Origin: Escherichia coli
GTDB taxonomy: Bacteria > Pseudomonadota > Gammaproteobacteria > Enterobacterales > Enterobacteriaceae
Assembly: GCF_045037415.1 (NCBI RefSeq)
Contig: NZ_CP173438.1
Direction: 5' to 3' (one strand)
DNA length: 64,000 nucleotides
The first letter of the stretch is position 1. Every line of letters begins with the position of its first letter. Position numbers: made by a program. Below are positions 1 through 3,000 of the stretch, piece by piece.

Positions 1-3000
1 CACGATCCATTGAGTAGAGCGGGTTGAAGGTGGAAGGCGCTTTCGGCAGCCCGGCTATCACCGCCATTTCGTTCAACGTCAGTTGGTCGACAGTTTTACC
101 GAAATAGACTTGTGCCGCAGCACCGACACCATAGGCGCGGTAACCGAGGTAAATCTTGTTCAGATAAAGCTCGAGGATCTCGTCTTTCGTTAGCAACTGT
201 TCAATGCGAATCGCGAGGAAGACTTCCTTAATCTTGCGCATCAGCGTGCGTTCTGGACTGAGGAAGAAGTTTCTCGCCAGCTGCTGGGTAATGGTACTCG
301 CCCCTTGTGACGCGTGACCGGAGAACAGCGCCACGCTTGCCGCACGGAAGATCCCCACCGGGTCAACGCCGTGATGCTCGTAGAAGCGGCTGTCTTCCGT
401 CGCGATAAAGGCTTTCACCATCTCCGGCGGGATTTGATCCAACGTAACCGGAATACGACGTTTCTCACCGTATTGAGCAATCAGCTCGCCATCGGCGCTG
501 TAAATCTGCATCGGAATTTGCAGGCGAACATCTTTTAATGTCGCCACATCCGGCAGTTGTGGCTCGATGTAGCGGTATAGGCCATAAATCGAGCCTGCTC
601 CCAGCAGAATGCAACAGACTGCAAGGATCAAAAAATACTTTACGAACTTCACTGGAAATTTCCCATTTAGTTTCATTTGGGCAGTTTATAAACAAACGCG
701 CGGTAGTATAAAGGCAAGCCAGACGCATTGATATACCCGTCAGAGTGACGGGTGATAAGGAGATCATCACAATGGCATTTAAGAACTGGCAAATTGGTTT
801 GCATTTACAACAGCAAGAAGCGGTAGCGGTTGCTATCGTGCGGAGCGCAAAAGAATGCTTATTGCACCGCTGGTGGCGGTTGCCACTGGAGAACGACATT
901 ATCAAAGATGGGCGGATTGTTGATGTGCAGCGGCTGGCTAACACGTTGTTACCGTGGAGTCGCGAACTGCCGCAGCGTCATCACATTATGTTGGCGTTTC
1001 CCGCCAGTCGCACATTACAGCGGTCATTTCCACGCCCGTCGATGTCCCTCGGTGAGCGGGAGCAAATGGCCTGGCTGTCCGGGACGATGGCCCGTGAACT
1101 GGATATGGATCCGGACTCCCTGCGCTTCGATTACAGCGAAGACTCACTCAGTCCCGCCTATAACGTGACTGCCGCGCAAAGCAAAGAGCTGGCAACGCTG
1201 CTTACTCTGGCAGAAAGGTTGCGTGTTCATGTTAGCGCGATCACTCCGGATGCCAGTGCATTACAGCGATTCCTGCCTTTTTTACCTTCTCATCAGCAAT
1301 GTCTGGCCTGGCGTGATAACGAACAGTGGCTGTGGGCGACGCGCTATAGCTGGGGGCGCAAACTGGCGGTGGGGATGACTAGCGCGAAGGAGCTGGCGGC
1401 AGCGTTATCTGTTGATCCCGAAAGCGTCGCGCTATGTGGCGAAGGCGGATTTGACCCCTGGGAGGCGGTTTCTGTTCGTCAGCCGCCGCTACCGCCACCA
1501 GGTGGAGACTTTGCCATCGCGCTGGGGCTGGCGCTTGGGAAGGTGTACTGATGAACCCGCCAATTAATTTTTTGCCCTGGCGACAGCAACGCCGGACCGC
1601 TTTTCTTCGTTTCTGGTTGCTGATGTTCGTTGCGCCTTTGCTGCTGGCCGTCGGGATAACGCTAATACTGCGTCTGACAAGCAATGCCGAAGCACGCGTA
1701 AACGCCGTTTTGCTTCAGGCGGAACAACAACTCACCCGCAGCTTACAGATAACGAAACCACGTTTGCTGGAACGCCAGCAGTTACGCGAACAGCGTTTGC
1801 AACGTCAGCGCCAGCGACAATTTACCCGCGACTGGCAATCTGCGCTGGAAGCACTAGCGGCGCTTTTACCCGAACATGCCTGGCTGACAACGATAAGCTG
1901 GCAGCAGGGAACGCTGGAGATCAAGGGGCTTACAACAAGCATTACCGCGTTAAACGCGCTGGAAACGTCACTCCGCCAGGATGCTTCTTTTCATCTCAAT
2001 CAGCGGGGGGCCACGCAGCAGGATGCGCAGGGACGCTGGCAATTTGAGTATCAGTTAACAAGGAAGGTTAGCGATGAACATGTTCTTTGACTGGTGGTTC
2101 GCCACATCACTCCGCCTCCGCCAGCTTTGCTGGGCAGTCTGGTTGCTGGTGTTAGTTACGCTCATTTTTCTGTCATCGACACACCAGGAAGAGCGCGACG
2201 CATTAATTCGACTACGGGCGAGTCATCACCAGCAGTGGGCTGCACTGTATCGCCTGGTAGACGCCACTCCCTTCAGCGAAGAAAAAACGCTGCCCTTTTC
2301 GCCACTGGATTTTCAGTTATCCGGCGCGCAACTGGTTTCCTGGCATCCATCCGCGCAGGGTGGTGAGTTGGCGTTGAAAACGCTGTGGGAAGCAGTGCCG
2401 TCGGCATTTACACGGCTGGCAGAGCGCAACGTCAGCGTGAGCCGTTTTTCGTTAAGCGTGGAAGGTGATGACCTTTTGTTCACGCTACAACTGGAGACGC
2501 CGCATGAGGGTTAAACGCTGGTTGTTGGCAGGTATTGCATTGTGCCTTTTAACCGGTATGCGTGACCCTTTTAAACCGCCGGAAGATCTATGCCGGATTA
2601 GCGAACTTAGCCAGTGGCGCTATCAGGGGATGGTAGGGCGAGGCGAGCGCATCATCGGTGTAATAAAAGATGGGCAAAAAAAATGGCGACGGGTGCAGCA
2701 AAACGATGTGCTGGAAAACGGCTGGACGATCTTACAGCTGACGCCAGACGCACTAACGCTGGGAACCGGGACAAACTGCGAACCGCCACACTGGTTGTGG
2801 CAACGGCAAGGAGATACAAATGAAGCAATGGATAGCCGCACTACTGTTGATGCTGATACCCGGCGTACAGGCGGCAAAGCCGCAAAAAGTGACGCTGATG
2901 GTGGATGACGTTCCGGTAGCTCAGGTGTTGCAGGCGCTGGCTGAACAGGAGAAGTTGAACCTGGTGGTTTCGCCAGACGTCAGCGGTACGGTGTCGTTAC

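Follow-up and report, generated by a model that had tools for sequence, protein, structure and literature searches.

The closest described relatives of the hofP/hofQ pair of Escherichia coli are PilP-PilQ of the type IVa PilMNOPQ system and ComD-ComE of Haemophilus, with which the hof genes share the M-N-O-P-Q order and HofQ its place in the PilQ subfamily. In addition, the domain of HofP resembles the structures of PilP and of the homology region (HR) of GspC, which bind the N0 domain of the secretin, although, unlike the PilP family, HofP belongs to the Pfam family HofP and no family is shared at the sequence level. With regard to the junction between the two genes, short coupling overlaps of 1-4 nucleotides (nt; ATGA or TGATG) likewise join co-directional operon neighbours, and some relatives of the pair have 0-4 nt. 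As to long overlaps, a survey of 715 co-directional cases exceeding 60 base pairs (bp) judged all of them to be errors or unconserved, and none real (Palleja et al. 2008, PMC2478687). Here we describe the hofP/hofQ overlap in a stretch of E. coli DNA of 64,000 nt (the window; contig NZ_CP173438.1 of assembly GCF_045037415.1), whose positions 1-6500 hold the mrcA / hofM-hofN-hofO-hofP-hofQ / aroK / aroB / damX region. Whereas the other hof junctions, of 1, 17 and 11 nt, can be likened to short coupling overlaps, the hofP stop lies 86 nt past the hofQ start and 29 codons are read in two frames.

We propose, with a probability of roughly 0.7, that this is a genuine and old same-strand, out-of-frame overlap, in which HofP would consist of a PilP-like domain followed by a disordered tail of ~29 residues, and hofQ would initiate independently at ATG 2820. 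The hofP gene starts with ATG at 2504 and stops with TGA at 2906-2908, and hofQ starts with ATG at 2820-2822 on the same strand and in another frame ((2820-2504) mod 3 = 1), with hofQ codon positions 1, 2 and 3 coinciding with hofP positions 2, 3 and 1. Read in the hofP frame, the overlap encodes HofP residues 106-134 (NEAMDSRTTVDADTRRTGGKAAKSDADGG) and the stop; read in the hofQ frame, it encodes the 18-codon signal peptide MKQWIAALLLMLIPGVQA (2820-2873) and the first 11-12 mature codons (AKPQKVTLMVDD). A preliminary description of this DNA had placed the hofQ start at 2820 and the hofP stop at 2908, with 89 bp shared, all of which is borne out by the sequence coordinates and by the RefSeq annotation. 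It had also assigned the last 29 codons of HofP and the HofQ signal peptide to different frames of the same DNA, which holds with one correction, namely that the overlap runs past the signal peptide into mature HofQ. The identical 89-nt overlap is found in the RefSeq annotation of SK1144 (an identical strain) and of K-12, the 701-nt stretch around it is 100 % identical to strain SK1144, and a search with this stretch as the query recovered the locus, with identities of 95-100 %, from 5425 of the 5426 complete E. coli genomes. The overlap is already present in standard E. coli annotations, and its existence is no discovery.

According to the mechanism that we envisage, the HofP tail would be read in the alternative frame over the hofQ start, the signal-peptide codons and the first mature codons, while hofQ would initiate on its own AAGGAG Shine-Dalgarno sequence, embedded in the final codons of the HofP folded domain. 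Ribosomes translating hofP would cross the hofQ ribosome-binding site and continue for another 86 nt, and hofQ initiation would be independent of them rather than a case of termination-reinitiation. The tail itself probably acts as a flexible periplasmic extension near the HofP-HofQ contact.

The majority of long same-strand overlaps recorded in databases have been put down to mispredicted start codons (PMC2478687), and the preliminary description had likewise considered a true hofQ start further downstream. No long overlap would exist if hofQ began past the hofP stop or at an internal start codon, such as the in-frame ATG 2850, ATG 2898 or GTG 2901. Such an annotation error is scarcely credible, and the downstream start is rejected, on the following grounds. 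Preceded by a strong Shine-Dalgarno sequence, ATG 2820 opens a HofQ N-terminus in which MKQWIAALLLMLIPGVQA is followed by AKPQ with a cleavage site between VQA and A (read from the sequence, without a signal-peptide predictor), and UniProt P34749 gives the same 18-residue signal (quoted in PMC10278209). The NCBIfam model NF007851 spans HofQ residues 1-412 of 412 at 855.7 bits (cut-off 598), the domains STN (PF07660), Secretin_N (PF03958) and Secretin (PF00263) score above their cut-offs, and the protein is a PilQ-subfamily secretin by TIGR02515 (447 bits). Furthermore, in an orthologue set of 55 loci, one genome per species, of which 51 are intact, the start codon equivalent to 2820 is kept in every intact locus as ATG, or as GTG in the E. 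cloacae complex, and all of these loci (~50 species) have a GGAG or GAAGGA motif upstream of it and a hydrophobic signal peptide behind it. Export of a secretin requires a signal peptide, and the internal starts would remove all or most of it. Met11 (ATG 2850) and Met27 (ATG 2898), the only in-frame hofQ ATGs between the start and the hofP stop, are not conserved, and the downstream candidates taken together (TTG 2847, ATG 2850, GTG 2889, ATG 2898 and GTG 2901) were discarded as neither conserved nor leaving a usable signal peptide. The hofP-hofQ overlap is genuine and not an annotation error.

Changes at hofQ four-fold degenerate sites cannot alter HofQ, and it is at these sites that the second frame leaves its mark. 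The preliminary description had suggested evolutionary constraint, to be checked by the conservation of synonymous sites across enterobacteria. This analysis supported it: compared with ~1.0 elsewhere, the hofQ four-fold rate in the overlap relative to the whole gene was 0.29 in Escherichia, 0.47 in the Enterobacter/Lelliottia group and 0.71 in Citrobacter (random-column p of 0.0016 or less), lower than in every other 28-codon window of hofQ, and the suppression was specific to the overlap. Profiles of 10 codons over hofQ codons 1-30 gave 0.32, 0.43, 0.65, 0.49 and 0.27, and rose at the hofP stop to 0.92 (codons 26-35) and 1.36 (codons 31-40). A parsimony test, with Fitch counts on a neighbour-joining tree over conserved four-fold columns, yielded 3-9 changes at the five overlap columns versus a mean of 12.1 at the 127 columns outside (Mann-Whitney p = 0.0019), and 14-17 changes in the first four columns after the hofP stop. 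On this comparative evidence, wobble-position conservation in the overlap exceeds chance.

The hofP stop codon itself points in the same direction. The first base of the hofP TGA is supplied by the wobble position of the HofQ codon Asp29, and 47 of 48 species have GAT there. Its neighbour Asp30 is encoded by GAT in 22 species and by GAC in 18; across the other ten conserved Asp columns of HofQ, GAT accounts for 18-40 out of 45-48 Asp codons. The sole GAC at codon 29 among the 48, in Salmonella arizonae (L057), is accompanied by a TGA that arises one codon earlier; Enterobacter sp. ENT03 (L031), discussed below, lies outside this 48-species set. We infer that the position of the hofP stop is also selected, and four measures drawn from the alignments indicate that selection acts on the second frame. 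In the reverse direction, the four-fold sites of hofP show a suppression to ~0.3 within the tail, as expected because those sites are hofQ second positions. Between close species pairs, hofP first positions are substituted at a rate of 0.085 in the tail versus 0.064 in the body. Most likely, the HofP tail is translated, and purifying selection constrains it to a degree comparable to that in the remainder of this fast-evolving protein.

Features of the hofP/hofQ overlap, in coordinates of the window
Feature	Position	Strand	Description
hofP coding sequence	2504..2908	+	134 amino acids (aa), PilP-like pilus/DNA-uptake assembly protein; Pfam PF10748; same coding sequence in RefSeq
HofP folded beta domain	2594..2818	+	residues about 31-105, PilP/GspC-HR-like; ends where hofQ begins; AlphaFold2 (AF2) and Foldseek
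hofQ Shine-Dalgarno AAGGAG	2808..2813	+	6 nt before ATG 2820; within hofP codons Arg101-Gln-Gly-Asp104
HofP C-terminal tail	2819..2905	+	residues 106-134, predicted disordered; AF2
Dual-coding overlap	2820..2908	+	89 nt
HofQ signal peptide region	2820..2873	+	MKQWIAALLLMLIPGVQA, 18 residues, cleavage after VQA; translation and UniProt listing
hofQ coding sequence	2820..4058	+	412 aa, secretin / DNA uptake porin; NCBIfam NF007851; RefSeq agrees
hofQ codons Asp29-Asp30 (GAT GAC)	2904..2909	+	middle bases form the hofP stop TGA (2906-2908)

Reduced synonymous change is often seen at the 5' ends of genes, and hofQ codons 1-10 stand at 0.32. One might thus attribute the conservation of 2820-2908 to such a 5'-end constraint, or to an RNA element, for example a hairpin which covers the ribosome-binding site until translation of hofP melts it, with the coding of HofP being irrelevant. 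We consider this very improbable. Suppression is strongest in codons 21-30 (0.27), which belong to mature HofQ and lie far from the initiation region, and for this reason a general 5'-end effect does not explain it; moreover, it stops exactly at the hofP stop. The minimum free energy of the RNA at 2790-2930 was -40.8 kcal/mol, where shuffled sequences averaged -40.9 kcal/mol (z = 0.03), and RNAalifold on 22 species returned 2 invariant GC pairs at -0.46 kcal/mol without covariation, that is, essentially no consensus structure. A structure sequestering the hofQ Shine-Dalgarno sequence was neither detectable in the E. coli fold nor conserved across the 22 species.

The same results bear on the strong translational coupling which the preliminary description had offered as a further explanation of the overlap. 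The hofP stop at 2906-2908 lies 86 nt past the hofQ ATG, a distance that departs from the geometry of termination-reinitiation, and no RNA structure masking the ribosome-binding site was found; such coupling is not shown, and classical translational coupling is not supported. The idea that E. coli reaches an ancestral ATGA stop by programmed frameshifting was discarded as well, as direct reading of 2808-2822 revealed no slippery sequence there.

At the protein level, HofP matches Pfam PF10748 over residues 3-134 with 263.8 bits (cut-off 24). In the AF2 model, residues ~31 to ~105 form a confident beta domain with a predicted local distance difference test score (pLDDT) of 78-90, whereas residues 106-134 remain below 50 (35-37 over most of them) and lack secondary structure, and this low-confidence segment is exactly the part encoded by the overlap. 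With Foldseek, the domain matched PilP (3jc8_Pa, 2ivw, 2lc4 and 2y4x) and the HR of GspC (3oss_C) at a probability of 1.00, with modest E-values of 5.6e-4 to 0.05 and TM-scores of 0.35-0.73. The bases that form the hofQ Shine-Dalgarno sequence also encode the final conserved residues of this domain (Arg-Gln/Glu-Gly). Ala, Asp, Thr, Gly and Arg are abundant in the tail, and its length is similar in Escherichia, Citrobacter, Salmonella, Enterobacter and Klebsiella. Some of the apparent conservation of the tail, for example at NEAMD and the terminal GG, is imposed by the conserved HofQ residues MKxW and VVDD; the wobble-site analysis is unaffected by this.

Of the 51 intact loci, 48 keep the same relative frame and overlap by 80-98 nt, with a length of exactly 89 nt in 33 of them. 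The genera concerned include Escherichia, Citrobacter, Salmonella, Enterobacter, Lelliottia, Trabulsiella, Huaxiibacter and Pseudenterobacter, among others. When 1.8 billion representative proteins were searched with a profile, many more distant HofP relatives were recovered, in which the domain closes with the conserved C...W.W.(K/R).G and a tail of 18-30 residues follows. The genomic contexts of some of these relatives also contain long overlaps, of 92 nt (Klebsiella michiganensis), 74 nt (Atlantibacter), 59 nt (a Pantoea wallisii-like contig) and 62 nt (another metagenomic contig). Short forms are scattered among these long ones: the overlap is 1 nt (TAATG) in Shimwellia blattae, it is missing in Mixta calida, where a same-frame TAG stands just before the hofQ ATG, and it is 4 nt (ATGA, in the other frame) in a Leclercia metagenome-assembled genome (MAG), another MAG and one metagenomic contig. 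This distribution suggests repeated switches between long and short forms. In the E. cloacae complex (L051-L054:2750-2775), the GTG start of hofQ follows a run of seven A (GAAGGAACGAAAAAAAGTG), and the Leclercia MAG with the short overlap (L056:2775-2797) carries GCGAAAAAATGA; a one-base difference around this run may underlie the switch between the 4-nt and the ~89-nt form.

Two further loci show lesions within or upstream of the overlap. In Citrobacter koseri NCTC10786 (L007:2780-3300), a 1-nt frame change within the overlap joins the HofQ signal peptide to the frame of the HofP tail (ending in AVQAGKSAKRDAGGG and a stop); the change breaks hofP and hofQ together and illustrates that insertions or deletions in the overlap cost double. 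In Escherichia albertii NBRC 107761 (L028:2501-2905), the Glu codon 34 of hofP is replaced by an in-frame stop with the remaining gene and the tail intact; this is probably a recent pseudogene or a sequencing error.

Why the overlap should be about 89 nt long can be understood from the geometry of the two frames. Each codon of the hofP frame is composed of a hofQ wobble base and the first two bases of the next hofQ codon, so that a stop in this frame requires a hofQ codon ending in T and then one starting with AA, AG or GA (Lys, Asn, Ser(AGY), Arg(AGR), Asp or Glu). Codons of this kind do not occur in the hydrophobic core of a signal peptide, so that no stop is met in the hofP frame before the polar residues of mature HofQ are reached. 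E. coli hofP ends at the hofQ codons GTG GAT GAC (Val28-Asp29-Asp30), read as GA-TGA-C, and other lineages stop at the equivalent first polar pair, being Ser-Asp, Asp-Lys or Ser-Asn. When the HofQ N-terminus was recoded synonymously, the hofP stop fell at 86 or 89 nt in 63 % of cases for E. coli and in 33-56 % for other species, and since recoding so often reproduces these values, the length of the overlap is unsurprising. It is set mainly by geometry. For the same reason, the avoidance of stop codons in the hofP frame was dismissed as a signal of selection: it is uninformative, the HofQ amino-acid sequence alone being sufficient to keep the frame open. The resulting rule is that the frame formed by hofQ position 3 followed by positions 1 and 2 stays open across signal-peptide codons, and consequently an upstream gene that loses its stop gains roughly the length of one signal peptide.

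This geometry lends itself to a neutral account, according to which the hofP stop was shifted or lost in an ancestor, the reading frame then extended across the signal-peptide codons, which offer no stop, and the tail has since been tolerated without being selected. Depending on the species, between about one third and two thirds of the recodings arrive at the observed length through geometry alone, and the tail, predicted to be disordered, is without deep sequence conservation; it was lost by a nonsense change in Mixta and by frame changes in Shimwellia, Leclercia and related MAGs, and the overlap was lengthened in one Enterobacter. However, hofQ four-fold sites evolve at 0.3-0.7 of the gene-wide rate only inside the overlap and recover sharply after the hofP stop, the wobble T that forms this stop is kept in 47 of 48 species, and no RNA structure is at hand as an alternative cause. 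We therefore regard a mere by-product as unlikely, and prefer a genuine overlap with a selected tail.

Several observations nevertheless weigh against this preferred reading. The suppression in Citrobacter is weak (0.71), and the synonymous-site statistics rest on 16-26 informative codons from related taxa. The tail is absent in Mixta, Shimwellia, the Leclercia MAG and some metagenomic relatives, and in Enterobacter sp. ENT03 (L031:2501-2956) it is longer, as HofQ Asp29 is GAC there, the usual hofP stop is gone, and a HofP of 151 aa overlaps hofQ by 140 nt; on account of these absences and of this extension, the tail is dispensable in some backgrounds. No tail motif common to distant lineages was found, the segment is predicted to be disordered, and the AF2 model was built on a 13-sequence alignment with a mean pLDDT of 67.6. 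Moreover, unless Sxy is induced, transcription of the hof operon is low or below detection (PMC1635313), and we infer dual-frame translation from comparative data. Besides Enterobacter sp. ENT03, several distant HofP relatives (145-161 aa) carry similarly long tails.

Following from the genuine overlap proposed here, its place among known overlaps can be considered. Within the scheme of Palleja et al. 2008 (PMC2478687), the locus looks like a 3'-extension overlap (class iii), as hofP is likewise 3'-longer than its orthologues in Mixta, Shimwellia and Leclercia while hofQ has its normal length. In contrast to the cases of that survey, the hofP/hofQ overlap is conserved across genera with constraint on both frames, and it thus resembles a counter-example of the 3'-extension type that has become fixed and constrained. 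The pair is not in the supplementary lists of the survey, and our literature search found no paper discussing the overlap. It is also reminiscent of the overprinted genes of phages and viruses, where likewise one DNA is read in two frames and synonymous change is suppressed in the older one; unlike these, the second reading at hofP/hofQ comprises only a short terminal tail, in a chromosomal operon, and creates no separate new gene.

We further entertain, with somewhat less than even confidence, the idea that hofP-hofQ is a bona fide co-directional chromosomal overlap of more than 60 nt which is maintained by selection, with the tail being a functional periplasmic peptide that might, for instance, contact HofQ or set the hofP:hofQ ratio via ribosome traffic. 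If true, the locus would belong to a class that the survey (PMC2478687) concluded does not exist. The hofP/hofQ overlap provides a clean chromosomal example of a long same-strand overlap with constraint on both frames across genera, contrary to the published rule of thumb that overlaps of more than 60 bp are errors, and it draws attention to an uncharacterised tail on a PilP-like protein of the E. coli DNA-uptake/pilus machine.

The N-terminal part of HofP differs from that of PilP, which is described as a lipoprotein in the PDB entries 2y4x/2y4y, in that no conserved lipobox cysteine is present in the orthologue alignment, the Cys14 of E. coli being unconserved. Residues 13-20 (2540-2560) instead contain an invariant L-T-G-M-R after the N-terminal hydrophobic segment. 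Upstream of the RefSeq start at ATG 2504, the hofP frame is open over 2465-2503, where a GTG at 2465 would add 13 residues (MMTFCSRYNWRRR). Among the E. coli matches to the 701-nt query, one of 5430 is borne on a plasmid, and in strain CUPF12 (NZ_CP182159.1) 72 % of the query matched, in two places, so that hofO/hofP may be disrupted there. Finally, overlaps are found at all junctions of hofMNOPQ, with 1 nt between hofM and hofN (TGATG, 1549-1553), 17 nt between hofN and hofO (2074-2090) and 11 nt between hofO and hofP (2504-2514).

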